Below, piece by piece: positions 8,030-29,509 of a stretch of DNA of 64,000 bases (position 1 is the stretch's first letter; each line of letters begins with the position of its first letter). Under the pieces are notes generated by a model. The model did no database searches and was not told where the DNA came from. It saw only the letters and a list, made by a program, of their open reading frames with translations. This stretch comes from Syntrophales bacterium (GTDB lineage: Bacteria; Desulfobacterota; Syntrophia; Syntrophales; UBA2210). The translations under genes and the position numbers were made by a program. The stretch lies in NCBI GenBank assembly GCA_963662405.2, contig CAXXKT010000002.1, positions 6,578 to 70,577 on the forward strand. Direction: 5' to 3'.

Positions 8030-8116
8030 TACGGCTCACATAAGCCCGATTCGCATACGAGCACAGTCTGTACAGAATGGATCCCCACCGCTGGCGCGAT
8101 AATTGAGAAGTAACGT

Positions 8117-10324: not shown

Positions 10325-10371
10325 ATTGCTGTAGTAGATCTGCGCAGTGAAGGGTGGGAGGGAGACGGTAG

Positions 10372-11070
10372 ATGAACACAGGATTACAAAACATCATACG
10401 GGGGTTATTGATAGTTCTCTGGTTTGTCTCTCCCCTGTCCGCCGGAGCGGCAGAGCATATGCTGATGATAGACCCTGCTCACGGGGGGGCCGATACCGGT
10501 GTTAAACTGTCCCGAACCGTGTATGAGAAAGATATAACTCTTGCTATCGCGTTGGATATGAAGGAGCGTCTTTCCAAGACGAGCGGTATAACGATCCGCC
10601 TCACGCGGTCCGGTGATACCGATCTTACATTGGCGGAGAGGAAGAATATCCTTCGACAATCAAATGCGGATCTCGGGATCAGTCTCCACGTCAATGCAGG
10701 GTTTGGGCTGAACGCTGAAGGGTACGAGGTCTACTACCTTGGGGTCACGGCACCGTCCGCTCCCGAGCATAATTCAGGAGAGATCGTCAACGATATGGCA
10801 CAGACACGATGTTTTAATAACAGTGTCCTTTTTGCCCAGATGGTACAAAAAAACATGGAACAGGTCTTCCCGCGGAAGGGGAGAGGTCTCCGGGAAGCAC
10901 CGGTACACCTCCTACAGGCGCTAGAAATGCCGGCCATTCTCTTGGAAATAGGCTTCTCGACGAAACTTGAAGAAAAGAAACAGCTACGGGAAGACGCCGT
11001 GCAGAAGGCCGTTGCAGATGCCCTGACGCACAGTGTGAAAGAATATTTTTCGATGGATGGGTCATCATGA
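10372..11070 (+). CDS. N-acetylmuramoyl-L-alanine amidase (Amidase_3)
   Basis: 232 aa with a signal peptide, [17 protein letters not shown] and LLEIGF motifs. Confidence 0.85.
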
Positions 11071-11789
11071 TACGGTTTAACGGCCGCGGATGGAATGAAA
11101 TGCGGCGGATAAAGATAACCAGAGACTTCGTCTCGAGTGCGAAGGGGTCGGTCCTCATAGAAATAGGGGATACACGCGTGATATGCGCTGCCTCATTGGA
11201 AGACCGTGTGCCCCCCTTTCTGAAGAATTCGGGAAGGGGATGGCTGACCGCTGAATACGCCATGCTCCCCGCGTCCACGCCGCAAAGGAATGCTCGGGAG
11301 TCAGCGAGTGGAAAGATCAAAGGGAGAACGCACGAGATCCAGCGTCTGATAGGACGGTCGCTGCGGGCCGTGACCGATATGGCCGCTTTCGGTGAACGGA
11401 CGATCTTTATCGACTGCGATGTGATTCAGGCCGATGGAGGCACACGAACCGCATCCATCACCGGGGGATTTATCGCGCTGGTGGATGCCGCACGCCGACT
11501 GAAAGAGGAGGGGCTGATAGAACGCTTTCCTGTAAACGACTTTATCTCGGCGATCAGCGTCGGGATTGTCGACGGCGAAGTTCTTCTTGATCTGGATTAT
11601 GCTGAAGATTCGCATGCCGATGTCGATATGAACGTAGTCATGACCGGCAGCAAAGGGATCGTCGAGATCCAGGGAACTGCCGAGGCGGAACCCTTTCAGA
11701 GAGAACTGCTGGGTCGGATGATCGACACGGCGGACGCAGGGATCTCTCAACTGACGGAAAAGCAGAAGGAACTTCTCGGATCGCTCTAA
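11067..11789 (+). CDS. rph: ribonuclease PH
   Basis: 240 aa with [29 protein letters not shown] and [22 protein letters not shown] overlap with the amidase stop. Confidence 0.95.
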
Positions 11790-12460
11790 TGCCTCATTAT
11801 CGCGCTCCCGGATCAGCGTATGCTATGAACGAAGATGAAAAGCAAACAATCATTATCGCCTCGGAAAACAAGGGAAAGGTACGAGAACTTAAAGCGCTGC
11901 TTGAGGGAATGGAAGTGGACCTCCGGTCGCTGAGCGACTATCCTGACGCTCCTCATGTCGAGGAGAATGGGCGCACATTTCTTGAGAATGCCTTCATAAA
12001 GGCACGCACGATATCTGACTTTACCGGCATGACGGTCATTGCGGACGATTCCGGGTTGGAGGTTGACGCGCTCGGGGGGAGGCCTGGTATATATTCGGCC
12101 CGATATGCGGGAGATACAGCGACAGACGAAGAAAATATTTGCAAACTCTTATACGAAATGGGATCTGTTCCGGAAGGCAAGAGAGGGGCAGCCTTCCGTT
12201 GTGTGCTGGTTTTGTACCGGACCAACGGGACCTCTGAAACCTTTGAGGGGACATTGAGAGGATCAATTACTCGGGAACCATCGGGTAAAGAAGGATTCGG
12301 TTATGACCCCGTCTTTTTTGTCCCGGAATATATGGTCACCGTTGCCGAACTCGATCCGGCTGTCAAGAACCGGATCAGTCACCGGGGAAAGGCATTTGCA
12401 CAGCTCAAAGACCGTTTGGCCAAGGACCAGGCGGTCGATAAAAACTCAATCGGGGCGTAG
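11789..12460 (+). CDS. rdgB: dITP/XTP pyrophosphatase (RdgB/Ham1)
   Basis: Motifs [55 protein letters not shown] overlap with the rph stop; an alternative ATG lies at 11825. The last 10 nt overlap the tRNA 5' end. Confidence 0.9.
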
Positions 12461-12527
12461 CGCAGCCTGGTAGCGCGCCTGCTTTGGGAGCAGGATGTCG
12501 CAGGTTCAAATCCTGCCGCCCCGACCA
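12451..12527 (+). tRNA. tRNA-Pro (anticodon UGG), CCA encoded
   Basis: Manual cloverleaf: acceptor CGGGGCG/CGCCCCG, D arm GCGC-AGCCTGGTA-GCGC, anticodon arm CCTGC-TTTGGGA-GCAGG (UGG), T arm GCAGG-TTCAAAT-CCTGC, discriminator A plus CCA. Confidence 0.95.
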
Positions 12528-12530
12528 TTT
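12483..12530. repeat. att repeat copy 1 (tRNA-Pro from the anticodon loop to 3 nt past CCA)
   Basis: The 48 bp TTTGGGAGCAGGATGTCGCAGGTTCAAATCCTGCCGCCCCGACCATTT are identical at 21977-22024. The last 30 bp are identical at 31815-31844. Confidence 0.9.
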
Positions 12531-12584
12531 AAATCAAGTACTTATGATATATTCAGGGGAGTCAAAAAGAGATACTTTTATTAC

Positions 12585-12607
12585 CGGACCGTTTCCGGTA
12601 CCATTTT
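12585..12607. repeat. 23-bp direct repeat CGGACCGTTTCCGGTACCATTTT (left copy)
   Basis: Exact copy at 21826-21848; the similarity extends about 7 bp further 5' (TTATTAC vs TTATTCT). It lies ~55 bp inside att copy 1. Confidence 0.85.
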
Positions 12608-12746
12608 AATGAGTGCTTGAAGCACAAAAAAGGCCCCCGATCTCTCAGGAGCTTCAAATCCTTGCAAAAAGATCAAGAATCCATTTCCTTACTAAGCAAC
12701 ATCAACATGCTATCCAAATACGATAAAAAGAAGGGGGCATAAAAAC

Positions 12747-13157
12747 ATGGGATTTTTATCGCGCTTGTTCGGATCAAAAAAGCAAGAACTTATTGTCAAT
12801 ATACCTGGTCCCGGCCTATTTAAGCATGATGTAGTCGGGGAATCAAAATATCAGAAGGAGCTATCCGCAATATGTGGTGGCAAAACAGAGGACGGCCACA
12901 AAAAGGTTGTAACTGCCCTGCTGATACATGAAGACACTAATAAATATGACAACAAAGCCATCCTTGTTGCTATTGATGGCAATCCGGTTGGTTATCTTGA
13001 TAGAGAAAATGCGAGACAATTCAGGAAACTTCTTGCCGATGAAGGCTATCCCGGAGCCGGGGCAACATGTGCCGCCAAAATAGTCGGTGGCTGGCAAAGG
13101 AAAGACGGAGACGAAGGTCATTTCGGTGTCAAGCTTGATCTACCAGTGGTGGAATGA
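12747..13157 (+). CDS. hypothetical protein, HIRAN-like domain (tentative)
   Basis: 136 aa with a good RBS (AAGGGGG). VVGESKYQKEL...ALLIHEDTNKYDNKAILVAIDGNPVGYLDRENA...GHFGVKLDL resembles bacterial HIRAN-domain proteins, judged from memory of the family only. Confidence 0.45.
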   Translation: MGFLSRLFGSKKQELIVNIPGPGLFKHDVVGESKYQKELSAICGGKTEDGHKKVVTALLIHEDTNKYDNKAILVAIDGNPVGYLDRENARQFRKLLADEGYPGAGATCAAKIVGGWQRKDGDEGHFGVKLDLPVVE

Positions 13158-13367
13158 GGGCCGGGTGGTCTGGGTTCTGTTTTGAAAAGGGGGAGCTATG
13201 AAAACAAGCAGACTGATTAAATGTAAAAAACGTGACGGCAGTTATTGTTATTGTTCTTCTGATACTATTTTTTCTAACAGGCGGCTTCGGTCTGATGTAT
13301 TAAGAATATGGGATGGAGCAATTAAAGAAAGGGTATAATTAACAGGCTTGAAAGGAGACCGTGGAAG

Positions 13368-13595
13368 ATGTCGCACACAATCAAAGAACTCCGAGAAACA
13401 AGTGATGAACAACTTATAATTGACCATGATAAAAAAGCAGACAGTACCGATCCGGGTGTGAATTATTACCTCGATGAATTGCAGCGCAGGCAACAAAACA
13501 GACAAACCAAAATCATGTTGTGGCTTACTGTTGTGATAACGATATTAACAGCCGCCAATGTCATTACGGTTTTTGCTTCTCTGGCGTGTCGATAA
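13368..13595 (+). CDS. hypothetical small protein with C-terminal transmembrane helix
   Basis: 75 aa, RBS AAAGGAGA 8 nt upstream. A polar N-terminus is followed by IMLWLTVVITILTAANVITVFASLA. Confidence 0.45.
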   Translation: MSHTIKELRETSDEQLIIDHDKKADSTDPGVNYYLDELQRRQQNRQTKIMLWLTVVITILTAANVITVFASLACR

Positions 13596-13752
13596 ATTCT
13601 CTGACTTCATATCGTCCTGGTTTCCGCTCAAAGCTATTCATTTCCGAGAGCTTTGCTTTCATAACCGCTCTGCCAGTTGACCACATAATCGCCCCGTCCC
13701 CGGTATTCATCCATCTTGAAATTTCGGTGTTCCATATTCCATAATGTTTCAT
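13564..13752 (-). CDS. hypothetical small protein
   Basis: Track ORF 13564..13767; ATG 13752 is preceded by GGAGGA at 7-nt spacing (MKHYGIWNTEISRWMNTGDG...). Confidence 0.35.
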   Translation of the reverse strand: MKHYGIWNTEISRWMNTGDGAIMWSTGRAVMKAKLSEMNSFERKPGRYEVREFIDTPEKQKP

Positions 13753-13786
13753 ATTGCTGTCCTCCATTTTAAGAAAGGATCAAATA

Positions 13787-13975
13787 ATGACCGCACGAAT
13801 AAAAAGTATTGACAACGATCTAATAACCCTTGATGACGGTCACGCATATCGCGCCGAAAGAATGGATATGAATCGCCTATCATCGTGGAACGTTAATGAC
13901 AAGGTTAGAATAGGATATGATTACCTATTCCACTTTAAGCGCGAAAAAAAGGTACACGTCAGGCGCGAACGATAG
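13787..13975 (+). CDS. hypothetical small protein
   Basis: Track ORF 13754..13975; ATG 13787 lies behind AAGAAAGGA (MTARIKSIDNDLITLDDGHAY...). Confidence 0.35.
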   Translation: MTARIKSIDNDLITLDDGHAYRAERMDMNRLSSWNVNDKVRIGYDYLFHFKREKKVHVRRER

Positions 13976-14141
13976 GAACCACGCACGCTACCTCTATAAG
14001 AAGTTTCCCCTCGCAGGCAATCTCTTGCCCCTGGAGATTTCTTTTTTTGAAATCGCGGTCAAGAGGATAAGCATCCTCTATTGATACGACTTCGATACCA
14101 GCCGCTTTAAGATCACTAATTACCTTCTCTATTGTTCCCAT
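13959..14141 (-). CDS. hypothetical small protein
   Basis: 60 aa with a strong RBS (AGGAGGTGAGGT before the ATG). It sits directly downstream of terL on the same strand. Confidence 0.4.
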   Translation of the reverse strand: MGTIEKVISDLKAAGIEVVSIEDAYPLDRDFKKRNLQGQEIACEGKLLIEVACVVPIVRA

Positions 14142-14212
14142 ACCTCACCTCCTGAATTTTTCTTAACTCTACCCCAGGCCGCCGTCTTCGGGAGAGGTCA
14201 ACAATCTTGCGA

Positions 14213-15853
14213 TTAAAAACACATCCCGGCGAGGATCTCCTCTTTCGTCATATTTTCGTATGCTGAAACGAACGCGTCTTCATGTAGCAACAGGCCACCG
14301 GCAAGGGCCATAATTGCCGCGACTGCTGCATCTATCTTCTCTACGGATCGCCGCTTGGAGGGTTTCAGGTTTCCTGCTGCATCCGCTTCCGTGGTCAGAT
14401 TCGATATACACCACCGTAGCACCGGGTCATCGTTGTGACGGAGTTTTCTGGAAAGTATCAGTTTCAAAAGTTCCTTCGTTGGTGCTGACTGATCTTTGTA
14501 GCCCTGCCCGTGTCCGACCATGACCACACTTTCAGATTCAAGTGCTTGTCTCACCGATTCAGAGCCCCATCGGTCAAAGTGAATGGACTGAAGGTCAAAT
14601 TGTGTTTTCAGTTGGAGAATCTTCTCTATGATGAAGTTGTATTCAATCACAGCACCGGGAATCGCTATCAAGTCACCACTGTTAATCCATTGCAGGTAAG
14701 GTTTTCTCCGGTGCTGTCTTGCGGTATCTTCGGGCAGCCAGGACCAGGACAGCAAGTAAAAAAGATCCTCTTCACCGTCAGGAGGGAAACACAAGGAAAA
14801 GGATGTCAAGTCCTGTGTGCTCGATAGGTCAAGGCCACCGTAGCATTTACGGCCCGAAAGGTCAGGGATATCGCCCTTGCAGGCATCCCAATCGGTCATA
14901 GATATGAAGGGTGTAGCCGCTTCTGTCCACTGATTCAAGTGCAGCCTCTTGAATACGGCTTCATATGCAGGGCTTTCCTTTGCCCGTTCACACTCCCGTG
15001 CCAAGTACTCTTTGGAAATCGAAACACCTAAACAGGGATTGACGGCCTCCCAGATTGCCGAATCTGTCCAAGCGGCCCCCGTGGGAGCCTCATAAATCAC
15101 AGGGAAGAAGGCCTTGTCATTAATAACGCCGTCCTGGACACCCTTGGCGTATTGATATTTTTCGTAACATATGCTTGTCTGATCATATCCCGCCGTAGTA
15201 ATGGAAAGCGTCAATGGTTCCCGCCTCGCTCCCGTACTGGTTTGTAAAACGTCGATCAATTCACGGTCGGCGATTGCGTGAAGTTCATCAAATATGACAA
15301 GGTTTGAATTGCTACCATGCTTTGTGTTTGCTTCTGACGATAGAACCCGAAACACGCTGTCACGGTCAGGATATCTGATTTCACTTCTTAAGACTTCGGC
15401 GCGCCTGTCCAAATCCTCATCTTTAAAAATCATCATTTTCGCTGTATCAAAGACTATCCGTGCTTGTTGTCGATCCGCTGCGCAAGCGTAGAGTTGCTGG
15501 CCACGCTCCTCTTGGCAAAACAGAAAAAAGAGCGCAATACCAGAGATTAAAAGGCTCTTTCCGTTCTTCCTCGGTATGAAGATAAAGGCCTCCCGGAATC
15601 GCCTGAGGTGTGTCTTCTCATGCTTCCAGCCGAAAAGGTGGCCGATAATAGCCTCCTGCCACAATTCAAGCACAAAGGGATATAGGGCCTTTTCTCCGTG
15701 GACATGGTGAAGACACTCATGGAAGAAATCAATAGCCTCTTGACCGGCCTCGGCGTCAAGGTAGTAGTCTCCGGCGCTCTGGTACGGGTCGAATCTGACC
15801 GGATACCCCGGATTGAATTTGATCCAATCATTTGAAGAATCTATTTTTTCCAT
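14213..15853 (-). CDS. terL: phage terminase large subunit
   Basis: 546 aa with Terminase_1-type N-terminal ATPase (FIFIPRKNGKSLLISGIALFF, VIFDELHA) and a C-terminal nuclease region. It overlaps the terS stop. Confidence 0.85.
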   Translation of the reverse strand: MEKIDSSNDWIKFNPGYPVRFDPYQSAGDYYLDAEAGQEAIDFFHECLHHVHGEKALYPFVLELWQEAIIGHLFGWKHEKTHLRRFREAFIFIPRKNGKSLLISGIALFFLFCQEERGQQLYACAADRQQARIVFDTAKMMIFKDEDLDRRAEVLRSEIRYPDRDSVFRVLSSEANTKHGSNSNLVIFDELHAIADRELIDVLQTSTGARREPLTLSITTAGYDQTSICYEKYQYAKGVQDGVINDKAFFPVIYEAPTGAAWTDSAIWEAVNPCLGVSISKEYLARECERAKESPAYEAVFKRLHLNQWTEAATPFISMTDWDACKGDIPDLSGRKCYGGLDLSSTQDLTSFSLCFPPDGEEDLFYLLSWSWLPEDTARQHRRKPYLQWINSGDLIAIPGAVIEYNFIIEKILQLKTQFDLQSIHFDRWGSESVRQALESESVVMVGHGQGYKDQSAPTKELLKLILSRKLRHNDDPVLRWCISNLTTEADAAGNLKPSKRRSVEKIDAAVAAIMALAGGLLLHEDAFVSAYENMTKEEILAGMCF

Positions 15854-16199
15854 TGCCGTTTTCCTCTTCTCTTGGTGTTATTTTTACACCTCGGCTGTAT
15901 GGTGACAGTCCAAAGTGAGACAAAAGTTTCAAATAAAGGTCGCTGTAAGCTTTCCACATGGTAAAGGCCGGATGTTTTTTAGTGGTATCATGGAGCCCGT
16001 CAACGGCCAGGCCTTCACGCTCTATCAGCCGGTCAGATACTGTCATCTTATGGTAAACGCGACACAGGGTTTCAAAGGTCTCACGGTCAAGATTGTCCAG
16101 TGAGCCCGACTCTACTAGGCGCGGGCCAACGCTTTTCCATAACCTTTTTCCGTGTTCTCCCAGGTCTGAAGGTGCTTTCCAGAGCTTTGTAATTTTCAT
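15828..16199 (-). CDS. terS: phage terminase small subunit, P27 family
   Basis: 123 aa. ...GKRLWKSVGPRLVESGSLDNLDRETFETLCRVYHKM...KLLSHFGLSPYSRGVKI is characteristic of P27-family small terminases. Confidence 0.75.
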   Translation of the reverse strand: MKITKLWKAPSDLGEHGKRLWKSVGPRLVESGSLDNLDRETFETLCRVYHKMTVSDRLIEREGLAVDGLHDTTKKHPAFTMWKAYSDLYLKLLSHFGLSPYSRGVKITPREEENGNGKNRFFK

Positions 16200-16250
16200 A
16201 ATTTCCTCATTTACCTAAAACCGATTGACCTTCAGCGGTGTGCTTCTGCC

Positions 16251-16634
16251 CTAGCGCCGGTATGACGATCTCGCGCTTTCTGAAGATTTTACCCCCCCCT
16301 TGGCCCCATGCTCAACGTTGTGACAGGCAAGACAAAGGCTTTCCAGGTTATCCATAGCGAAGGGATCGCCACCGGCTTTCACTTCTTGCTTGTGGTGAAC
16401 CATCGTGGCAGGTGTAACCCTTCCCTGATCCATGCACTTCTGACACAAGGGAAACTCTTCCAGGTGCAACCGTCTAACCTTGCGCCATTGCGATGATACA
16501 TAGAGCGGGTCAGGTGTTTTGTTACCTTTCTCTTTCGTGTATCCCTTCAAGTGCTCATCACAATAACCCGAAGCATTACGGGTCAGATTGTGACAACCCT
16601 TCATTTTACAGACTCTGAACGCTCTCTTTGCCAT
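16251..16634 (-). CDS. HNH endonuclease
   Basis: Start moved to MAKRAFRVCK. It has CQKC...VHHKQEVKAGGDPFAMDNLESLCLACHNVEH (HNH with zinc cysteines). The position upstream of terS/terL matches HK97-like cos packaging modules. Confidence 0.85.
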   Translation of the reverse strand: MAKRAFRVCKMKGCHNLTRNASGYCDEHLKGYTKEKGNKTPDPLYVSSQWRKVRRLHLEEFPLCQKCMDQGRVTPATMVHHKQEVKAGGDPFAMDNLESLCLACHNVEHGAKGGVKSSESARSSYRR

Positions 16635-16766
16635 CAATTTTTTCTCCGCTTTATCACAACACACAAACGAGCCAGCCCACAGCAAAACCCATTATGGCCA
16701 TACACATATGAAGAAATATCTCTATTACGTTCATCTCATTATCTCCTCGCATCCCTGTTATTTTGT

Positions 16767-18491
16767 TCACCGTGCCATTTCATCAAACCTTGAATATTCC
16801 CCGTGATAATAAAGCAGACATTCCCCGCCGCTGTTGTACCGGCTCGCCTCAATCCTGACCAAGGTTGCCGGATCATAACTTTCCGTTGCTAATTCCCCGC
16901 CGTTTCCCTTCTTCCTGGCCCGGTGTAAAATTATCAGGTGATCGCAATCCGAAAAGATTGAAGATGAATCTTTCAAATCCATTGCCGTCATGATTGAGTT
17001 GGCCTGAATCTTTCGCGGTTGTGCAATCAGGATGATAGGAATTTCAAGTTCTTCGGCAAGGAACTTGAAGGCTTGAACGGCAAGCCCGATTTCTTGAACC
17101 TGGTTATTGATTGACCGGCAAAGAAAATGAAGATGGTCAAAGCATATCAGCTTCAGACCATAGCGCCGAATTGCCGCTTTCAGTGTTTCCATGATCCCGT
17201 CAAGTGTCGGCTTCTGGTAGCAGTAACCCAGGTAAAAGGGCTTTCCCTTGAAGTCGATCCGCGCCCTTTCGATCTCTGCAAGACCGATCTCTTCTGATTT
17301 GTTATGGCATTGCATGGCCTTCTGAACGATCTTCATCGGTCGCATCTCAAGGCAAAAGAAGAGGGAAGGAATATCTTGAAGGGCGTTATGGGTGATGGTC
17401 TGTAAAGCAAGGGTTGACTTTCCTATCTTCGGGGGTGCGGATAGAACAATCAGTTCACCCGGCATAAAACCCGTTTTGATTATACGGTCAACAGCCCCCC
17501 AGCCGGTTCTAATCCCAGTCGCCTGGTCCGGTCGTTGCGCTTCCTCTCGATACTTTTTCACACCTTCGGCAAAGGTCATGATCCCGGCAACATCAAATTG
17601 ACGCGCTTCATTGACCATCTCGGAAAATTCATTATGACCGCCGCCGGCCCGGAATAGGTCGTTTACGTCCTGGCCATCAGGTAAGGCCACGTTTAAACAG
17701 CGCTCATATCCTAACCTCCGCGCCGCTTCACGGGCTCCCTTCTGTCCCGGTTCATCCTGGTCATAGCAAAGGTATATTTTCTTAACGGCTTGAAGCTGGT
17801 CAATCCATGACGGGTCAAATGATCCAGCCCCTGTGGTAACTCCAACAACGTTTTTTATTCCCTGGTCAATCAAGGTCAATGCGTCAAGTTCGCCCTCAGT
17901 GATATAGATCTCATCCGGGTGTTCCTCTACAACGTCACCGTTAAAAAGGATTGACCGGCAACCCTTAACGCGCCGGAAGGTCTTTTCTGTGGGGGGCAGT
18001 GACCGGCTCTTAATGTTTATCAGCTTGTCTTTTTCGTAGTGGGGTATGGTCAACCATCGGCCCCCGTCTCTGTCGATCTGTAATCCAAGCTTGAAAGCTT
18101 TGGCGGTCTCAATGCTGATCCCCCTGGCCTCTGTGATGTAACTTACGGCGTTCTGGTCGGTCAAAAGGCGCTCATAGGCTTCTGTGGCCTTCTTTTCATC
18201 CGGCTTGATTGAAGGGGCGTCTTTATCCTCGAAAGCCTGCCTGACGGCTCCCTGTGGCTTCTGGTTCATGCGTCTGGTCCCTCGCTGTGGTTGAAAGTCT
18301 CCATAATGTTTTTGCAGGGTGATAAGGTTTCCCCGTTCCTGGCACTTGTGGCAATAGAAAGCGCCTTCATCCGGATCCATGTAAAAATGACTTTTCGGAT
18401 CCCCGCAAAAGGGGCAGGTTTTCAAGACTGCCTGTCCTGATTGAATCCGGTATTCAAGCCCCTTGCTCTGAATATATTCAAGTGCCGTCAT
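16767..18491 (-). CDS. bifunctional DNA primase/helicase (T7 gp4-like)
   Basis: 574 aa: zinc finger CPFCGDPKSHFY...CHKCQERG, Toprim (ITEGELDALTL, CYDQDEPG), DnaB/RepA-like Walker A SAPPKIGKST and Walker B ICFDHLHFL. Confidence 0.85.
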   Translation of the reverse strand: MTALEYIQSKGLEYRIQSGQAVLKTCPFCGDPKSHFYMDPDEGAFYCHKCQERGNLITLQKHYGDFQPQRGTRRMNQKPQGAVRQAFEDKDAPSIKPDEKKATEAYERLLTDQNAVSYITEARGISIETAKAFKLGLQIDRDGGRWLTIPHYEKDKLINIKSRSLPPTEKTFRRVKGCRSILFNGDVVEEHPDEIYITEGELDALTLIDQGIKNVVGVTTGAGSFDPSWIDQLQAVKKIYLCYDQDEPGQKGAREAARRLGYERCLNVALPDGQDVNDLFRAGGGHNEFSEMVNEARQFDVAGIMTFAEGVKKYREEAQRPDQATGIRTGWGAVDRIIKTGFMPGELIVLSAPPKIGKSTLALQTITHNALQDIPSLFFCLEMRPMKIVQKAMQCHNKSEEIGLAEIERARIDFKGKPFYLGYCYQKPTLDGIMETLKAAIRRYGLKLICFDHLHFLCRSINNQVQEIGLAVQAFKFLAEELEIPIILIAQPRKIQANSIMTAMDLKDSSSIFSDCDHLIILHRARKKGNGGELATESYDPATLVRIEASRYNSGGECLLYYHGEYSRFDEMAR

Positions 18492-19255
18492 ATAATCCTC
18501 ATCCCCTGGCTTCTGTAATGTTCATCAAGGGCATGACTCCCTGTTGACTTCATAACTTCCACGCTTGTCATGCTGGTCTCTGGTTTCAGATTTCGGATGA
18601 TTCCCAAAAGGTACTTTTCGCCCTTCTTCTGTTCTGCATATCCCTTTTCAAGATAAGCCCTGGTCCCTGTCATAACCGACTCAACCGGGTATTTATTCCA
18701 TGACTGCAAAATGGACAGCTTCACACTGTCTGCAATTCGGTTTGATTTTCTGGTTGATGATATGGCTTGAAATGCCTGGTTGATGATTTCCTGGTTTGAA
18801 TATCTTTCTTCCAGGGCAGAGATTTCAGAAAGTATTTTTTCAGGGGTTCTTTTCTTCTTATGTTCTTTTGTTCTTGTATGTTGCCCTTTGTTTGCCACTT
18901 GTTTGTCGTTTTGCGTGTCGTTTTCGTTCTCACTGCTCTGGTAAACGCTCCAATTTACAATGGTAATTACCGAAAACTTGTTTGTCGTTTTGCGTGTCAA
19001 ATTTCCGGCCTTTTCCAGAAAATCAAGAATGGTGCGGATTTCCCGGACTGTAAGGCCCGTTTCCTTAGAAGCTACGCGTAATCCGAAGATGAATTGACCC
19101 GGCATAAGGTGGACAACCTGCAAGCCTACAATGGCATCAAATTCTTTATGGGTAGCCTTCATGAGGCAGTAGGTCCAGAAAGCCCAAAGCTTATGATTCT
19201 TGATCCATCCGGCATCAAGGGACTTGCGCCATAGTTTCACATAGCCTTGATTCAT
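18488..19255 (-). CDS. replication initiator-like protein (phage O / DnaD-like winged-helix N-terminus)
   Basis: 255 aa. MNQGYVKLWRKSLDAGWIKNHKLWAFWTYCLMKA... is typical of phage replication-protein N-termini. ATGA overlap with the primase gene. Confidence 0.5.
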   Translation of the reverse strand: MNQGYVKLWRKSLDAGWIKNHKLWAFWTYCLMKATHKEFDAIVGLQVVHLMPGQFIFGLRVASKETGLTVREIRTILDFLEKAGNLTRKTTNKFSVITIVNWSVYQSSENENDTQNDKQVANKGQHTRTKEHKKKRTPEKILSEISALEERYSNQEIINQAFQAISSTRKSNRIADSVKLSILQSWNKYPVESVMTGTRAYLEKGYAEQKKGEKYLLGIIRNLKPETSMTSVEVMKSTGSHALDEHYRSQGMRII

Positions 19256-19464
19256 TTATCCGCCCCCACTGGTAGCTGATACGCCTTCGGATCTTCAAAC
19301 CGGGCATTGAAGAGTGCTGCAATTTCTTCCTCAGTGATCTGGACACGGCCCCTCTTATCTGCCAGTTCAGCGATTAGAAGGAACATGTTCGCGCCCAGAG
19401 GATTCTTCTGGAAAAGACGGTTGTACCGCTTCTTGAATTTCCGGTTCGGCTTGACGTCGATCAT
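19252..19464 (-). CDS. hypothetical protein
   Basis: Start moved to MIDVKPNRKF. It overlaps the downstream gene by 4 nt and is co-oriented within the replication module. Confidence 0.4.
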   Translation of the reverse strand: MIDVKPNRKFKKRYNRLFQKNPLGANMFLLIAELADKRGRVQITEEEIAALFNARFEDPKAYQLPVGADK

Positions 19465-19466
19465 GA

Positions 19467-19673
19467 TTAGGCCTCGATAGAACCCCGCGAACCATCCCGC
19501 GCCGCTAATCGTTCCGCCAGCCATGCATCAATCTCTTCTTCAAGCCAGCCAACAGAGTTTCCCCCCAACTGTAGCCGCTTCGGGAATCGTCCCGCCTTTT
19601 CCATTCTCCAGATAGTGGGATCGCTGAGGGGAACCCGTGATAGAAGTTCCGGTTTTCTGATTACTCTGGTCAT
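19467..19673 (-). CDS. alpA: AlpA-family transcriptional regulator / excisionase-like HTH
   Basis: Start moved to MTRVIRKPELLSRVPLSDPTIWRMEKAGRFPKRLQLGGNSVGWLEEEIDAWL, the classic AlpA/HTH_17 pattern. Confidence 0.8.
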   Translation of the reverse strand: MTRVIRKPELLSRVPLSDPTIWRMEKAGRFPKRLQLGGNSVGWLEEEIDAWLAERLAARDGSRGSIEA

Positions 19674-19788
19674 TGTTGCTTTTCCTTTCCGGCAAAAAAA
19701 ATGCCCATCAAGTGTTCTTTTGATAGGCATTAAAGCACAGTACAAAACATTGCTCTATGTATGGGGGTACGGCAGTTACGTACAGTAT

Positions 19789-20571
19789 TTATGGTGTAAC
19801 AGTGATATTGTTTCCCATTGGTGCGGCGTTTGTTGTATCGATCTTGACTGCGAAAGTATTTTTTGTGGCATAAATGACTGGTGAATCTTTGCCGTTTAAC
19901 AAGGTTGCATCCTTACCCGTGGCACCAGATAGGGTAACAATGTCACCGTCTAAAAGACCGTGATTTTCTTTTTCTATGATTGTAGGATAGCCTATTCTGG
20001 CAGTACAGTCCCGTACAGGGTCTTTCTTCCATTTTTCAGCGTTCCGATAAAACCATTGCTTAACAGTTTCAAAATTTATGTCTGTTCCCCACTCTTCTTT
20101 GACACATTGCGCCGCACCACGGAAGATATCATCCATTGGTTTGCCATCATTCTTGTTGATTTGATCAATAACATATGAAATAGCAATGATTCTTTCGCGA
20201 TAGGATTTGTATTGTTTCCAAGGTCCAGAACCGCCAGAAGAATCAAAGCCGAAGCACCAATCGAGCTTATTTGCCTTATTGTCTGTACGCATAAGACGCT
20301 TTGCGGTCCCGTCAAGATATTTTAATATCCATTCAGGGAGCGGGAGGCTGTTCTCCCGTACAAATTGGTAGGCGTCCCATACAGCAAGAGGGTTTCCTGT
20401 TTCCTCATAATCAAGTTTAAATCCATCAAGTGATCTCTTCTTTTGCTGCTGGATTATATCCAGCCCTCTAAAATAGGCTTTTAAACGAACCTCCACGGGT
20501 CCGCTTTCAGGCACTTCGGGGGGCAGAAGATAGTAGTTTAGAGGTAGTGTTCTACGTCGTTTTTTAGCCAT
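19789..20571 (-). CDS. hypothetical protein (260 aa) between integrase and alpA
   Basis: Start at MAKKRRRTLPL, 4 nt after the integrase stop. No motif recognised. Confidence 0.5.
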   Translation of the reverse strand: MAKKRRRTLPLNYYLLPPEVPESGPVEVRLKAYFRGLDIIQQQKKRSLDGFKLDYEETGNPLAVWDAYQFVRENSLPLPEWILKYLDGTAKRLMRTDNKANKLDWCFGFDSSGGSGPWKQYKSYRERIIAISYVIDQINKNDGKPMDDIFRGAAQCVKEEWGTDINFETVKQWFYRNAEKWKKDPVRDCTARIGYPTIIEKENHGLLDGDIVTLSGATGKDATLLNGKDSPVIYATKNTFAVKIDTTNAAPMGNNITVTP

Positions 20572-21790
20572 GCTTGTAATCCCCCATTGAAATAACTTTG
20601 CCGCCTGTAGGTGCAAATCCAAGGATTGATTGTAAGCGCCGTTCCCAAGCCATCAGCGCTTGACGTTTTTCTTTGTCATAGGGATAGCGATTATAGACGG
20701 CCAAAAGCCCTTGAAGTTTATGCCCCAGTACCCGCTCCGCGATTACATCATCAATTCCGATTTCAGCAAGACGGGTCCGCAGGGTCCGACGGATATCATG
20801 AGAAGAAAATCCCTCTGTGATTCCCATTTCCGACCAATGTCTCCGGATCGCGTTTGTCATTGCCCCCACCGTGACAGGAGTTCCTTCGTTATGCGTCGAT
20901 CTGAAAACCCATAATGAATCACTTGAATAAATCTTTGCTTCGTCAAGTATATCCTGCATCATAGGAACAACCGGAACCCGGTTTTCTTCGTTGTTTTTTC
21001 GAGCGTCCGCCGGTATCACCCACCACGCATCGGAGAGGTTCTCCCACTTCATCCTTGCAACCTCTCCCGGCCTTTGCCCGGTCAACAGGATCATTTTCAA
21101 GGATAGTTTTGTCAATCGGTAAATGTCGATCTCCGTATTTTCAAGATCCATAGCAGACCAAAAAAGCTTAATCTCTTCATCAGAAAGTACACGTGAACGA
21201 GGAGTTTCCTTGGTCTTCCGCATGCCACCCAAGGGAGAAAATTCTATCATCCCCCGTTCGGCTGCGAAGTTGAACATTCTGACAAGCACCCCTTGCAAAC
21301 GATTTGCACCAATAGGAGCTCGTTCTCTCACCTTGTCCAGTAACAGGACAGCATCCCGCCTTGTGATCGTGTTCACCTTGCGCCGTTTCCAAGAGGGTAG
21401 GGCATCTTTTTTTACAAGCCTTCGCCGCTCTCCGCCTGTCTTGCTTTTTGATAATTCTCGTTCCCAAAATTCGTTGAGTAGATCCTCAAAAGTTGGGTCC
21501 AGCTTGGATTTGCTCTTTTTTTCCTTGGCCTTTGCTGCTGGGTCAATGCCGTTTTCAACGTCTCGTAAGGCAAGAGCAGTCCGTTCCCTGGCCATGGCAA
21601 GTGAGACAGCCGGATATAATCCAAGGGAAAGCCTCTTTCGCCCCGGATTTTTGCCAGTATAGGTATAACGCAAGGTCCAGGATTTCTTCCCTGACGGATA
21701 AACCCGAAGGAATAAACCATTCTCATCTGCGAGATAAAACTCTTGATCGCGTGGTTTAATCCGTCTGATTTGAAGGTCAGTCAATGGCAT
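20564..21790 (-). CDS. int: tyrosine integrase, P4-type (N-terminal arm-binding DUF4102-like domain)
   Basis: 408 aa. MPLTDLQIRRIKPRDQEFYLADENGLFLRVYPSGKKSWTLRY is the P4-integrase N-terminus. Catalytic residues: TGQRPGE (R), SHDIRRT (HxxR), LGHK...AVYNRY (H, Y). Confidence 0.9.
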   Translation of the reverse strand: MPLTDLQIRRIKPRDQEFYLADENGLFLRVYPSGKKSWTLRYTYTGKNPGRKRLSLGLYPAVSLAMARERTALALRDVENGIDPAAKAKEKKSKSKLDPTFEDLLNEFWERELSKSKTGGERRRLVKKDALPSWKRRKVNTITRRDAVLLLDKVRERAPIGANRLQGVLVRMFNFAAERGMIEFSPLGGMRKTKETPRSRVLSDEEIKLFWSAMDLENTEIDIYRLTKLSLKMILLTGQRPGEVARMKWENLSDAWWVIPADARKNNEENRVPVVPMMQDILDEAKIYSSDSLWVFRSTHNEGTPVTVGAMTNAIRRHWSEMGITEGFSSHDIRRTLRTRLAEIGIDDVIAERVLGHKLQGLLAVYNRYPYDKEKRQALMAWERRLQSILGFAPTGGKVISMGDYKHG

Positions 21791-21825
21791 AATATTTCCC
21801 TTTCGTGCGGTCCGGCAGTTATTCT

Positions 21826-21848
21826 CGGACCGTTTCCGGTACCATTTT
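21826..21848. repeat. 23-bp direct repeat CGGACCGTTTCCGGTACCATTTT (right copy)
   Basis: Exact copy of 12585-12607. It lies 36 bp upstream of the integrase start and ~130 bp inside att copy 2. Confidence 0.85.
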
Positions 21849-21976
21849 TTAGGGTATAACAGCGAAGAAACATGAAACGCTATGAAGAGAGAATATTGCT
21901 ATATCCTCTTAATGTCAATAGATTTTTGAATGCTCTTGAATGGTTTTGAAAAGGAGAGAAAGATGGAAAATTCTTT

Positions 21977-22024
21977 TTTGGGAGCAGGATGTCGCAGGTT
22001 CAAATCCTGCCGCCCCGACCATTT
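21977..22024. repeat. att repeat copy 2 (3' 48 bp of the tRNA-Pro locus)
   Basis: Identical to 12483-12530. It is not a complete tRNA because the 5' half is missing. Confidence 0.9.
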
Positions 22025-22070
22025 TTATATTATAATTACAATAACTTACAAAAGTTTTGTGCCTCAAAAT

Positions 22071-22080
22071 AGTGGTGCAA
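22071..22080 (+). repeat. AGTGGTGCAA motif (candidate integrase arm-type site, int-proximal)
   Basis: The same 10-mer occurs twice in tandem at 31749-31758 and 31760-31769, at the other end of element 2. All three are in the same orientation, 45-65 bp from the att cores. Confidence 0.5.
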
Positions 22081-23404
22081 AGCTCGTTCAGTTTTTGTTG
22101 ATTTTTCCCCTCTCCTGACGACTTCGCATAGATCATTCTGACGTCATCCGATTCAATCTGAAAATACCGTTCAAAAGCCTTGTTGGTGGAATGCATTGTT
22201 GCCCGTTTTATCTGTTCAGGGGAGAAATGCTTTCTCAGGGCTCGCGCGGAACTGTGACGTGTCCCTCCGTACAGATCAACGTCAGCAATTCCCAAATTTG
22301 AACAGGCTCTTTTCCAGTATCGGCGTAAAAGGTCATTGCCAAAAGGGGCACCTTCCTTGAAAACACGTTGACCCTTGGCCGCAGGTCTATGTCGAAAGAA
22401 ATGGAGGCGAGGAAGGGCAGGGGGGAACGTTTTAAGAATCTCGATATCCTCATCCAGTAAAGAACGGCCTTGTAACGCTTCTCTTTTGGGTGTGGGAAGA
22501 GAAAATAGCCATTACCCGTATCGATATGACCCTCTTGGAGAGAAAGAAGCTCCTTGGGCCGAATTGAAATATATGTGGCAAGCCAACGTATGGCAAGGTA
22601 GATTTTGGGATTCACATTATGCGATATATTCCAAACCTCGTTAAGAATAGCGTCTTGAGTTTCCTTGTCAATGACGTTCCTGAAACCGAGGGTAAATTTA
22701 CATTCAGGAAATTCGGGGAATTCATACTGCCTGAAAGATTTCTTTTCTCTTCTCCATACCCACGTAAAAAAGTCATGGAGACAAGACATATAATTTGAAG
22801 CAGTTTTAGCGCCAACATTCAAGGAAGACTTGAAGTCCTCAAGCTCTCCATATTGAATCTTTTTGATCGTTATATCATCAAAGAATTCTTGTGCAGTTTT
22901 TATATAATTTTGAAGATTTTGGAAGTGACGTTTTGTGATAACTCCTCTCTGAACTTCGTCTGATTTGAGCAATAACCATTTGTCAGACAGGGTTTTAAAT
23001 CCCAGTGGGTTCCCAGCTTGATAATCTCTCCGATCAAAAGTTCCTTCATCTTCCTTGTAACGGATACCTTCGAGAAATCGCCGTGCACTGTCATAATAGG
23101 TAAATGTCTTATATACCCCTTTGAACTTTATAAAAAATGAAGACGCTTTTTCATCCCTGTGTTTCGGGCAATAAAGGCCCGTTTTCCCGTCATCTTTAAA
23201 AGATCGATTACATTTAGGACACCGCTCACGAGAATAGATTCCGCCTATCATGCACAGTCCCCCTTTTTGATATAATGGGGGATAAGTATCACGAACGGGA
23301 GAATCTTTCAAATTAGGCCACCTCCACGCAGAACAAAGGGTATTCTTGTTCGGAGGTTTTCGGTTTATCAGTGTATGTTGTGATATCCATGGAATTCACC
23401 GTGC

Positions 23405-24595
23405 TTAATATTTCCTTTGGAATCGCCTAACCATTTTATGTACCCGTTCAGTTCTGGAATCCTTCTTCCGGTGGTACTTTGCTCTTTTTTCCTTGACCCG
23501 TGCTTGCACGTCGGGAAGATATTCAGGGTACATAGAAACTTGTTCGGCATAGGTAGCAACACAATCATGAATACTGTAAGTGGTTTCAGGACTTCTCCTT
23601 TTTTCTTGATCAAGAGCATGAAGTGAAATGGCTAATCCATTTAACTGTTGAATCAGTCGTATCTCATCATTACACACGGCCTTTTCCCTCACGAGAGGTT
23701 CGGCATCCTGTACATTGTTGAATCCATTTTGAATCACCTTCCACCACCCAAAGGTTGACCTCTGGGTGTGATGAAGACCCGGCCTGTCCTGAAACTTGAG
23801 CCAATTTCTTGTGCAATACGCCCAAAGATTAACCGCCTTTTTTAAAAGATCAGAAGGCGTGTCAATATGGACTTCATCAAGGACTTCCCGCCTCATCTGA
23901 AATTCAAACCGTATAATCTTGGAGCTTTCCGGAACTTCCGAAATACCCCATACATCAAACATCCATGTTTTTTTCGATTGCTGTTTGATCTCCAAAGGCT
24001 TGTCATACAGTCGGGCTGAAATATCACCTTTTCCGATCCGAATACCGGTCAGCTTTTTGTGCCGAAAATAGGGAGCATAATCGGTTGCACGACTGACAAC
24101 ATATTCCAAGAGCTTCGTATTCCACCATCCTTCGGGCATAAGAACATCAACGCATAAGTCAACACGGCTTACTCTTTTCTTTGTAATATATCCCCCATTT
24201 GCTTCAACAATTCCCACCACCGTTTTAATTGCTTTATGTACGCCCAAATGCCAGAGGGTTTCAGAACGAATTTCTACGATAACACTTGCTTGAGGCCCCG
24301 GTTCTTTCCAGTTGCCCACTTTGAAGGTAAAATCAGAGGCCAAGAGAATCCAAGCATATCCCTTAGCCCCATGCGGTTTGATCAAGAAAGGCCACTCTTC
24401 AGAAGGATCGGCATATTTCAGTTTTCCCGGATGATCTTTTTTGAGCTCTTGGGCTTTTTTTTTCAGTTCTTCGAGATATGGAAATAAACGAGGGCCGCGC
24501 CAGGCAACATCCATAGATAAAACAAGGGTATCCACACCAGAGGCAAGTATATTTTCCTGATTAATTTTCACCTTTGAGGGGTACCTGATAGTCAT
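23405..24595 (-). CDS. rolling-circle replication initiator (Rep_trans-like)
   Basis: 396 aa. VSRVDLCVDV, ARLYDKPLEI and IIRFEFQMRRE resemble the conserved blocks of Rep_trans (replication initiation factor) proteins. Confidence 0.65.
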   Translation of the reverse strand: MTIRYPSKVKINQENILASGVDTLVLSMDVAWRGPRLFPYLEELKKKAQELKKDHPGKLKYADPSEEWPFLIKPHGAKGYAWILLASDFTFKVGNWKEPGPQASVIVEIRSETLWHLGVHKAIKTVVGIVEANGGYITKKRVSRVDLCVDVLMPEGWWNTKLLEYVVSRATDYAPYFRHKKLTGIRIGKGDISARLYDKPLEIKQQSKKTWMFDVWGISEVPESSKIIRFEFQMRREVLDEVHIDTPSDLLKKAVNLWAYCTRNWLKFQDRPGLHHTQRSTFGWWKVIQNGFNNVQDAEPLVREKAVCNDEIRLIQQLNGLAISLHALDQEKRRSPETTYSIHDCVATYAEQVSMYPEYLPDVQARVKEKRAKYHRKKDSRTERVHKMVRRFQRKY

Positions 24596-25014
24596 ACGGT
24601 ACCCCCACTATCAGATGACAGATCAAGGGACATTTGCCCCTCAGATATCCACCGGTTTTTAGCAACACGTCTCTTTTTGTCTTTGCTTTTGATATTTCCC
24701 TGACTTCTGGATCTGATCGGATGATCTGAAGATTGCTCAGCATCAAAAAAGTTAGCCTTTGCGGTCTCTCTGCCGGACCGCTTTGGCTTTTCGCATCCAG
24801 AATGCTGGCGACGAAGGAGAGTAGTTTTTTCCTCTTCCGATAGTACACGTGAACCGGGAAAGGCTTGGAGTATTTTATTGATGAGCGGTTGATGTTTTTT
24901 CTTGATTATATCAGCGTAAGTTCTCAGGGGCTGTGCCGACAAATTATATATACGGCTCACCTCTTCACGAACGGGGATTTCATCATTTAACGAAAGATTA
25001 TGCTTTAAAAACAT
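24592..25014 (-). CDS. hypothetical protein (basic C-terminal half)
   Basis: 140 aa with ATGA-type overlap with the Rep gene start. No motif recognised. Confidence 0.45.
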   Translation of the reverse strand: MFLKHNLSLNDEIPVREEVSRIYNLSAQPLRTYADIIKKKHQPLINKILQAFPGSRVLSEEEKTTLLRRQHSGCEKPKRSGRETAKANFFDAEQSSDHPIRSRSQGNIKSKDKKRRVAKNRWISEGQMSLDLSSDSGGTV

Positions 25015-25117
25015 AAAACTCTCCCATGTGCAGTGGGAGAGCCTCTTGACACACCCGATCTAACGGAATATCATTACAAGTGATATTGGGCTGCCGAAAG
25101 GCTCTCATATCGTTACA

Positions 25118-25160
25118 GAGACCAAGCACCGGGACCGGCCAAAGTCAGGTGCTTGGTCTC
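25118..25160. other. perfect 13-bp inverted repeat GAGACCAAGCACC-N17-GGTGCTTGGTCTC
   Basis: Read directly from the sequence. It lies between the RHH gene and the Rep operon. No U-tract follows on either strand, so it is not a classical intrinsic terminator. It is a candidate Rep nick-site hairpin. Confidence 0.5.
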
Positions 25161-25168
25161 ACTCCTGA

Positions 25169-25438
25169 TTATTCTTTAATCTTCAATTCTCCTTCTTCGT
25201 TGAAGGTAATTTTCCCACTGGCAATGCCTGCCCGGATATTCTTTATGAGTTTCTGACCGAATTTAAAGGCAGCAAGCAAACCGATTTTCTCCAACATGAT
25301 TGCATCTTCATATGCTGACTCTAAGAGGTTCCTCATTAGCTGACTCCTGCTGACCCCGATCTTAGTCGCCATTTCATCGAGCTTTGCGACAAATTCAGGT
25401 TCAAGTTGAACGGTATATTGCTCTTTTGTCTTTTTCAT
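25169..25438 (-). CDS. ribbon-helix-helix (CopG/Arc-like) DNA-binding protein
   Basis: 89 aa. The N-terminal YTVQLEPEFVAKLDEMATKIGVSRSQLMRNLLESA fits a beta-strand plus two helices RHH pattern. Confidence 0.6.
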   Translation of the reverse strand: MKKTKEQYTVQLEPEFVAKLDEMATKIGVSRSQLMRNLLESAYEDAIMLEKIGLLAAFKFGQKLIKNIRAGIASGKITFNEEGELKIKE

Positions 25439-25559
25439 ATCTTGCCCCCATTATGATGTGACTTTACATCATAATCATCTCATATATCATTTCCATTGTC
25501 AAAGGTTTTTTTTCTAATGAAATTCAAAAAATGCGGGGAGAGAGCTAATCACACAAAGA

Positions 25560-25689
25560 CTCTCCCCTTACGCCTTGCCGTGATTAGCACGAGCGCCCGA
25601 ACTGTCAAGGGTTCCCTTCGGCTCACTTCGTTCGGCCTTGACAGTCCGGCCTTGGCTCGTGCTTAAAAATAATCAGGCGACGGGGAGAG
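25560..25689. other. ~130-nt imperfect palindrome
   Basis: The left arm CTCTCCCC..CGCC..TGATTAGCACGAGC..GAACTGTCAAGG pairs with CCTTGACAGTCC..GCTCGTGC..TAATCA..GGCG..GGGGAGAG. A third GGGGAGAG at 25535-25542 can alternatively pair with CTCTCCCC at 25560-25567. Confidence 0.6.
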
Positions 25690-25829
25690 GGTAGGGCGAC
25701 ATTCAGGCTCAAGGAAAAGGGTAGAAACTATGTAAATGTTCATTTTGATGGTTCATGTCCACTTATTTGTCGGAATAATTTGGTAGCATAAGTTGTAATC
25801 ACAATATGAAAGCAAAACATTAAATTATC

Positions 25830-25867
25830 TTGACAATACACTGCCATAGAGTTAACAACTAGTTGTT
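25830..25867 (+). promoter_or_regulatory. candidate sigma-70 promoter (TTGACA-17-TAACAA) overlapped by perfect 14-bp palindrome AACAACTAGTTGTT
   Basis: TTGACA at 25830-25835; palindrome at 25854-25867. It lies ~180 bp upstream of the DUF4062 gene start. The -10 element is weak. Confidence 0.3.
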
Positions 25868-26045
25868 TTAAATCTTGATGTAAATTTTCTTAAAGTACCC
25901 AGCTGTAACAATCAGTTGCCCTGAATCAGTACGCTATGCGCGCAGCATCTCATGAATCAGTGAATTGATTTGACCCATTCAGGATAAATCATCCGCAGAG
26001 TGTTATGTCTATTAACGAAAGATATATCTATAAGGTGTGAATTTT

Positions 26046-29144: not shown

Positions 29145-29147
29145 CGA

Positions 29148-29414: not shown

Positions 29415-29509
29415 ATTTATATTGGGTTTCTAAAGTATATAATCGCCTTGTTTTTTTCAAGCGAGTTGATTCGGCATCAGAAGCAGACCCCGGGCCTCAA
29501 CTAAAAAAA

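Follow-up and report, generated by a model that had tools for sequence, protein, structure and literature searches.

An island of a Syntrophales bacterium with a complete HK97-type terminase and no detected capsid or portal genes as a candidate phage satellite

What use would a chromosomal island have for a complete DNA-packaging motor if it encodes no shell to be filled? This question is raised by Element 1, an island of ~9.5 kb (~12531-22024) that lies inside 48-bp direct repeats copying the 3′ end of tRNA-Pro in an uncultured Syntrophales bacterium (assembly GCA_963662405.2, contig CAXXKT010000002.1, positions 6,578 to 70,577; this whole stretch of 64,000 nt is called the window, and its own numbering is used here). 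An earlier note, made from the sequence alone, had read Element 1 as an integrase-AlpA-primase island with a full HNH-TerS-TerL packaging set and without capsid, portal or tail genes, and had left open whether it is a satellite type that redirects helper-phage procapsids or arose from a larger element by deletion. Our analysis favours the satellite alternative. With fair confidence, we regard Element 1 as an integrated satellite resembling PICIs (chromosomal islands inducible by phages), which has its own terminase and would package its own DNA into the procapsids of a helper phage. Element 1 is probably still mobile, and on the best reading it would exploit its helper by means of a complete HK97-type terminase, where classical PICIs use TerS and/or capsid-remodelling genes.

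Searches with Pfam and PHROG profiles identified the Element 1 operon as nine co-oriented genes on the minus strand, all of them intact open reading frames (ORFs), in the order and at the coordinates proposed earlier: integrase, a 260-aa protein, AlpA, a small conserved ORF, a DnaD-like initiator, a T7 gp4-like primase-helicase, HNH, TerS and TerL (Table 1). The sizes of 260 aa and 70 aa that had been given for two of them agree with the start codons that are probably the real ones. In the literature, classical PICIs have TerS and genes for an integrase, a regulator, a primase-replicase and capsid morphogenesis, but are described as having no TerL. Capsid-forming PICIs (cf-PICIs) carry HNH-TerS-TerL plus capsid, protease, portal and connector genes; TerL is used as a cf-PICI marker, and the phylogenies of TerL and capsid are reported to be tightly linked. 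The background on which the earlier note had drawn, namely the PICI layout and the joint presence of HNH-TerS-TerL and capsid genes in cf-PICIs, holds against this literature.

Element 1 resembles a classical Gram-negative PICI of the EcCICFT073 type in its size, its tRNA site and its att repeats, in the order of integrase, alpA, primase/replication and packaging genes in one direction, in its TerS homolog, in the accessory genes at the far end, and in having no tail, lysis, portal or connector genes. An integrase with att sites, an AlpA regulator, a replication module with an origin (as judged by sequence) and TerS are all present. It differs from this type by its full TerL and HNH genes, by the lack of a capsid-morphogenesis gene, and by its host, an anaerobic member of the Syntrophales rather than an enterobacterium or a Firmicute. 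Like cf-PICIs of the EcCIEDL933 type, it combines a PICI backbone with an HNH-TerS-TerL triad as in HNH-dependent cos packaging, but major capsid protein, protease, portal and head-tail connector genes are missing.

The closest solved structure to TerL is that of HK97 TerL (6Z6D, E 1.7e-63), and the alignment to it recovers the Walker A (RKNGKS) and Walker B (IFDELH) motifs as well as the nuclease motifs GLDLS, FDRW and KID. Comparison with the sibling locus L093 gave ratios of non-synonymous to synonymous substitution rates (dN/dS) of 0.10 for TerL, 0.11 for TerS and 0.14 for HNH; by these ratios the packaging genes of Element 1 are under purifying selection. Because TerL is full length with its catalytic motifs, and because of these low ratios, the packaging motor looks functional. 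In phage HK97 the corresponding proteins are gp74 (HNH), gp1 (TerS) and gp2 (TerL). Element 1 matches this arrangement in its homologous TerL, in an HNH gene that lies directly upstream of TerS (51 nt away), and in a conserved non-coding block at the place that cos takes in HK97-like phages; unlike in phages, no portal, protease and capsid genes come after the triad.

Where such genes would be expected, the 1.68 kb between TerL and the tRNA gene (previously estimated at ~1.6 kb of small ORFs) contains only ORFs of at most 136 aa, which is too short for an HK97-fold capsid or portal protein. None of the ORFs at 12.5-14.2 kb matched capsid-related families, and the possibility that cryptic capsid or portal folds lie at 12.7-14.2 kb, raised in the earlier note, was not borne out. 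Hidden Markov models (HMMs) of portal, prohead protease and major capsid proteins, built from 47 loci of more distant TerL relatives and with identities confirmed by Pfam on examples, reached a best E-value of 0.89 against the six-frame translation of the whole window. Likewise, tblastn searches with capsid and portal proteins of the sister elements described below returned no match at E≤1 in the window and nothing in the clade loci; the positive controls for both kinds of search were detected. For head-tail adaptors or connectors, Pfam gave no match in the remaining ORFs of up to 136 aa; the PHROG profiles covered the 136-aa ORF besides the nine genes of the operon. Element 1 is also devoid of tail and lysis genes.

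Two hidden remnants were considered and rejected. A truncated portal gene at ~14.2 kb could not be aligned, and a cryptic capsid fold has no suitable carrier, given that the small ORFs do not exceed 136 aa and that the sole unannotated ORF big enough, the 260-aa protein, models otherwise. Its AlphaFold2 model (pLDDT 74) consists of a helical N-terminal domain and a small C-terminal β-barrel, and the only fold matches, over ~80 residues, are to the ubiquitin E1 FCCH domain and to β-barrels of phage endosialidases and tail fibres. Since it has only 7 close homologs and none in the related elements compared, the 260-aa protein is best described as the product of an accessory gene, with no capsid, portal or connector fold in the predicted structure.

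A homolog search of 5.8 billion proteins with TerL showed that its relatives form a tight group of 59–97% identity, after which identity drops to 52% or less. The contigs inspected for this terminase-only clade (L001-L012, L093-L096, L183 and L265-L267) represent at least 11 lineages, within which TerL identity reaches down to 51%. The elements are on the scale of 8.6–10 kb and consist of an integrase, small helix-turn-helix, AlpA or MerR regulators and a replication module, followed by HNH, TerS and TerL; what comes directly after TerL is an integrase, a tRNA gene with host genes, or a short accessory region. According to tblastn, homologs of HNH (42–57%), TerS (48–78%) and TerL (51–70%) occur in all lineages, including loci without a called HNH gene, and every locus of the clade has an HNH homolog upstream of TerS; across the clade as a whole, identity is 48–96% for TerS and 51–97% for TerL. 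Screening of 16 clade loci turned up no gene for a portal, protease or capsid, as opposed to 74 of 80 control loci with a portal gene (more distant TerL relatives from a genome collection). The control loci typically have portal, protease and capsid, in this order, after TerL, a synteny that is missing downstream of TerL in the clade. Continuation of the homologs into portal or capsid genes, which the earlier note had named as pointing to a dead prophage fragment, is thus not what they show.

The integrases across the clade share only 21–25% identity, and the replication modules (gp4-like, DUF3987 primase or DnaB) are unrelated to each other. By these comparisons the conserved core of the clade is the terminase triad alone, carried on diverse backbones, and the layout is that of a conserved family and no one-off deletion. 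The closest sibling, L093, is 92% identical to the window in DNA over the segment from the replication genes to TerL. Outside this clade, the best TerL identity is 48% in a collection with one genome per GTDB species, where no close relative was found, and only 42–45% among GenBank phages. A scan of JGI metagenomes added one further clade member only.

Two of the relatives were assembled as circles, which suggests mobility. L006 (JGI 3300022916) is a contig of 9452 bp whose ends overlap by 127 bp, corresponding to a circle of 9,325 bp, and the same TerL is found integrated in L005, 200 bp before a tRNA-Leu gene that is followed by host arginase and NifU genes. L265, a contig of 8652 bp, has a terminal overlap of 30 bp, as expected for a 31-mer assembly, and corresponds to a circle of 8,622 bp; the TerL of L265 was present on 17 contigs, which stem from several runs.

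The position of the clade was examined in a neighbour-joining tree of 38 TerL proteins, comprising the 11 terminase-only lineages, two compact elements (L013 and L263) and the 25 best-matching phage or prophage TerLs from three collections. The terminase-only clade is monophyletic (bootstrap 100/100), and its sister group consists of L013 and L263; the joint group, again with 100/100, stands apart from the 25 phage and prophage TerLs. Both compact elements have the order replication module, HNH, TerS, TerL, a fusion of S78 protease and capsid, portal, and integrase. With the protease-capsid fusion and the portal they resemble Firmicute variants of cf-PICIs, and they look like minimal capsid-forming satellites of Thermodesulfobacteriota-type hosts. 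L263 (6654-16998) and L013 (~2950-15994) span ~10-13 kb beside host genes or a tRNA-Leu gene, with no tail genes in view. The simplest history, as read from the tree, starts from a capsid-forming ancestor in which capsid and portal were lost at an early date, after which lineages with the terminase alone endured and diversified; the opposite direction, a gain of capsid and portal, may have been taken instead. The TerL-capsid linkage reported for cf-PICIs is broken in the terminase-only clade.

These data bear on the second explanation of the earlier note, according to which Element 1 is a dead deletion derivative of a prophage or capsid-forming island whose terminase genes are relics of a recent loss. 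A past loss of the capsid is plausible, as the sister group combines TerL with protease-capsid fusion, portal and integrase, and Element 2 next to it is plainly decayed, containing what is left of an integrase as well as an insertion sequence (IS). Against a recent loss stand the retention of the capsid-less layout in at least 11 lineages whose TerLs have diverged to 51%, dN/dS values around 0.1 on all three packaging genes, intact genes between perfect 48-bp att repeats, two relatives assembled as circles, and the failure to detect any portal or capsid remnant. In its intact ORFs, its selective constraint and the persistence of its layout, Element 1 is unlike a defective prophage remnant. We therefore rate this explanation as highly improbable: as a recent event the deletion is essentially refuted, and it survives only as an ancient origin of the clade.

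A further group of relatives, L097-L102, was found through the 90%-identity cluster of the primase-helicase of the window. Window positions 16761-18859 are 95% identical to L097 9633-11731, and window positions 12623-13770 are 92–96% identical to L097 14400-15625. Between these flanks, the 3.0-kb interior of the window, with two small ORFs and the genes for TerL, TerS and HNH, gives way in L097 to 2.7 kb with genes for proteins of 57, 113, 397 and 90 aa. The 113-aa protein is TerS-like, with a near-threshold Terminase_4 match (E 5.5e-5), and the 397-aa protein is a full-length HK97-fold capsid homolog (PF05065, E 3e-78). The breakpoints of the swap fall at the stop codon of the primase-helicase gene and at the start of the 67-aa ORF. 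The L097 element (6631-15778; likewise L098-L102) is located at a tRNA-Met gene, has a different integrase and contains neither portal nor TerL. By sequence comparison, L097 carries the classical PICI module, TerS plus capsid homolog, on a backbone that it has in common with Element 1.

The sister elements and L097 together raise the idea of a satellite of satellites, a three-tier dependency in which the capsids come from co-resident capsid-encoding islands (of the compact or the L097 type) and the tails from a phage. The TerL of the terminase-only elements is indeed nearest to that of the compact capsid-forming elements (51–52% identity, against at most 49% for phages and prophages, and a bootstrap of 100), and L097 provides a sibling with the same backbone that has a full-length HK97-fold capsid gene and no TerL. 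Nevertheless, the margin between 52% and 49% is small, both types were not observed together in one genome or contig, and an L097-type partner without a portal would still require that of a phage. We consider such a dependency quite unlikely.

If Element 1 packages its own DNA, its terminase needs a site to cut. An alignment of nine elements revealed a conserved non-coding block at the HNH-TerS junction with the consensus ..CAACGTCAA..AAATCGGTTTTAGG, which is kept across elements whose proteins share only ~50% identity. In HK97-like phages, cos is located at the HNH-TerS junction. The block is, from its conservation, a candidate cos or terminase recognition site.

The same site could in principle act before excision, and Element 1 might then drive chromosomal transduction, either lateral or of the gene-transfer-agent-like kind, by cutting while integrated and packaging adjacent host DNA into helper heads. 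Integrated elements with pac or cos sites can package flanking DNA in situ, and the packaging genes of Element 1 read toward the tRNA-Pro side. However, HNH-dependent HK97-type systems are of the cos type and require two cos sites per unit, and Element 1 has a full excision and replication module and relatives that circularise. We hold chromosomal transduction to be extremely improbable as the main role of Element 1. PICI-mediated lateral transduction as such is reported in one publication (PMC12829572).

For the preferred reading, a satellite that packages itself into helper procapsids, the life cycle can be sketched as follows. The starting state is the island as found at tRNA-Pro between its att repeats, with intact integrase and AlpA genes. 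Upon infection or induction of a helper phage, AlpA-type control would activate the co-oriented operon and the element would excise, a step for which circles are seen in two relatives only. Replication would be carried out by the element's own primase-helicase from iterons within the initiator gene. The two iterons start at 18897 and 18976, a repeat for which 0 occurrences are expected by chance, and related repeats with the same 79-nt spacing are present in L093 and L265; the pair is a probable origin of replication. The primase-helicase itself is 97% identical in L097 and 66% identical in L265, with a dN/dS of 0.13 against L093. TerS, TerL and HNH would then cut the element's own site, likeliest the block at the HNH-TerS junction, and the satellite TerL would dock on the portal of HK97-like procapsids made by the helper and pump in satellite DNA. 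Because no gene for size redirection was recognised, each head would probably take up several 9.5-kb units. Tails and lysis functions of the helper would finally release transducing particles.

Several observations weigh against this scheme. The satellite TerL would have to fit the portal of a foreign helper, and no gene for capsid size or helper interference was recognised in Element 1, so that stable packaging of 9.5 kb in a phage-sized head is hard to account for. No helper prophage is present within the 64-kb window, whose flanks are housekeeping genes and whose second island is degraded. The relatives of the clade all come from metagenomes of uncultured anaerobes and amount to only about a dozen lineages; clade members are absent from IMG/VR (best match 49%), and no virion-associated sequence was found. 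Terminal overlaps of contigs can equally arise from tandem copies. For the cos-like site near terS, which the earlier note had suggested looking for, the conserved block is a candidate, but a loose cos motif scan was unspecific, with unrelated positions matched at about the chance rate, and the gap between HNH and TerS in L095 measures only 3 nt, which weakens the candidate.

The terminase cassette might also serve mainly in interference or defence, by occupying helper procapsids or cutting helper DNA, with transfer of the island being secondary or absent. Interference with helper packaging is reported for known satellites, and their TerS genes have been classed in the literature as interference genes; HIRAN-like and other small accessory genes adjoin TerL, and HNH shows weak matches to the defence-associated HNH protein ZorE. 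On the other hand, the triad always occurs with an integrase, a replication module and the conserved junction block, as self-packaging predicts, circular copies exist, and PADLOC models found no convincing defence system. Interference and self-transfer are, moreover, compatible with each other. As the main function of the cassette, we judge interference unlikely, and keep to self-packaging in helper procapsids.

How does Element 1 compare with other small satellites? PICI-like tycheposons and marine VEIMEs (integrative mobile elements that are encapsidated in virions) are likewise small and tRNA-integrating; they encode a primase-helicase plus one hijack gene of phage origin, and TerS, the major capsid protein or HNH have been reported in them singly. 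Their alternation between TerS and major capsid protein is mirrored by the terminase type of the window and the capsid type of L097. Going by their published descriptions, neither TerL nor a complete terminase is reported for them. In the satellite literature that we searched, which scarcely covered subscription journals, no description of a capsid-less satellite with TerL was found, and we put the chance that the layout is truly undescribed at about one half. The chances are equally balanced for the wider proposal that these elements form a distinct, unnamed class of satellites with a whole motor and no shell, in which motor cassettes and TerS-plus-capsid cassettes are plug-ins interchanged by recombination at fixed junctions.

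Table 1. Features of Element 1 and its integration site in the window.
Feature	Position	Strand	Evidence
tRNA-Pro (anticodon TGG), integration target	12451-12527	+	ARAGORN; Rfam RF00005, 70.1 bits
attL, 48-bp core repeat, tRNA-Pro 3′ part (last 45 nt) plus 3 nt	12483-12530		Repeat search, exact match to 21977-22024
30-nt hairpin-containing repeat near attL	12578-12607		93% identical to 21819-21848
136-aa accessory protein, weak HIRAN match	12747-13157	+	PF08797 E 6.6e-4, under curated cutoff
75-aa accessory protein, hydrophobic C-terminal segment, good ribosome-binding site	13368-13595	+	No family match
67-aa accessory ORF, last gene of the flank common to L097	13564-13767	-	86% identical in L097; no family match
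Exchangeable cassette: two small ORFs, TerL, TerS, junction block, HNH	13771-16760	-	Flank comparison with L097
62-aa ORF inside the cassette	13787-13975	+	Weak DUF1344 match, E 0.0014; no homolog in other elements
60-aa ORF directly after TerL, strong ribosome-binding site	13959-14141	-	No family match
TerL, HK97 type, 546 aa, full length	14213-15853	-	PF03354 (ATPase) 1.3e-36, PF20441 (nuclease) 1.9e-50, phrog_9 5e-168
TerS, P27 / Terminase_4 family	15828-16199	-	PF05119 7.2e-17
HNH-TerS junction, conserved non-coding block	16200-16250	-	Nine-element alignment
HNH endonuclease, packaging type, 128 aa	16251-16637 (ORF 16251-16685, probable start 16637)	-	PF01844 2.4e-9, phrog_144 6.5e-30
T7 gp4-like primase-helicase	16767-18491	-	Zn-ribbon, Toprim, DnaB_C; phrog_239 2.3e-77
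DnaD-like replication initiator or helicase loader	18488-19255	-	phrog_2514 2.9e-31
Iteron pair, probable origin, inside initiator gene	18897-18998		Exact 23-nt direct repeat, 79-nt spacing
69-aa conserved ORF, replication module	19252-19461 (ORF 19252-19524, probable start 19461)	-	No family match
AlpA-family regulator or excisionase	19467-19745 (likely start 19673, giving 68 aa)	-	PF05930 1.2e-12, phrog_2790
260-aa accessory protein	19789-20571 (ORF 19789-20622, probable start 20571)	-	Only 7 close homologs
Tyrosine integrase with arm-binding domain	20564-21790	-	PF13356 (Arm-DNA-bind_3) 1.4e-23, PF22022, PF00589 (Phage_integrase) 7.8e-17
30-nt hairpin-containing repeat, second copy, near attR	21819-21848		Repeat search and stem-loop listing
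attR of Element 1, also left junction of tandem Element 2	21977-22024		Repeat search

Element 1 is the first of two islands that lie in tandem at one tRNA-Pro gene, and a third, partial copy of its att repeat near 31800-31834 marks the far end of Element 2 (~22025-31834). On one side the islands are flanked by host genes for PhoH, ProRS, RelA/SpoT, an amidase, RNase PH and Ham1, and on the other by PEPCK, CorA and MscS, so that housekeeping genes are found on both sides. The ProRS has 84% identity to its counterpart in a 'Syntrophaceae bacterium' metagenome-assembled genome and 71% to the one in Syntrophus buswellii; the contig that contains the window measures 445,674 bp. Just inside both ends of Element 1, two 30-nt repeats in direct orientation contain a hairpin with a 7-bp stem (TACCGGA..TCCGGTA). 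As they would flank the attP core in the circular form, and as the integrase has an arm-DNA-binding domain, they are candidate arm-type integrase sites; alternatively, they may be terminators. A scan for promoters and terminators gave counts no higher than the shuffled expectation, and an Rfam scan matched the tRNA only.

Some of the small genes are well conserved among the relatives. The 69-aa ORF of the replication module is 83% identical in L093 and 62% identical in L097 and L265, the 136-aa protein is 87% identical in L093 and 96% identical in L097, and the 75-aa protein is 99% identical in L097. HIRAN proteins recur as accessory genes beyond TerL, with the weak match of the 136-aa protein in the window and a clear one in L008 (8681-9211). 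In L001 (12406-20571), an 884-aa β-helix protein (NosD/Big_5) is encoded downstream, followed by a second Terminase_4 gene, an integrase and tRNA-Ala; this region may represent a composite or tandem arrangement.

Element 2 is degraded, and a C-terminal integrase remnant (~22100-22295) lies beside its att copy. It contains two ORFs of 358 and 396 aa without assignment, genes for a PIN-domain protein (28170-28739) and for a TPR protein of 722 aa, and an IS insertion with an IS1595-family transposase fused to DUF4062 (26037-27383). The TPR gene (29885-31744) consists of ~14 tandem units of 120 nt (40 aa) with 73–83% mutual identity.

In the satellite literature consulted, the helper-exploitation modules comprise capsid remodelling, redirection of the helper terminase (by TerS, Rpp or a cos mimic), and a complete capsid of the satellite's own in cf-PICIs. 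The PICI model of SatelliteFinder tolerates one missing component ('Type B') and does not list TerL among the forbidden components; because TerL is not forbidden, models for detecting satellites might record terminase-only elements as PICIs that are incomplete. Pipelines that recognise viruses by capsid hallmarks might pass over them, and no member of the clade was found in IMG/VR. A satellite terminase that has to dock on a foreign portal would also lend itself to studying which motors are compatible with which portals. If our reading is true, Element 1 would add a further strategy to the repertoire of satellites, an own motor combined with a borrowed shell, and would depend on its helper for procapsids, tails and lysis only. 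Such a motor would free packaging from the specificity of the helper terminase and compete with the helper for procapsids. Hijack modules would then be exchangeable as cassettes on one backbone, and PICI-like satellites would extend to the strictly anaerobic, syntrophic Thermodesulfobacteriota.

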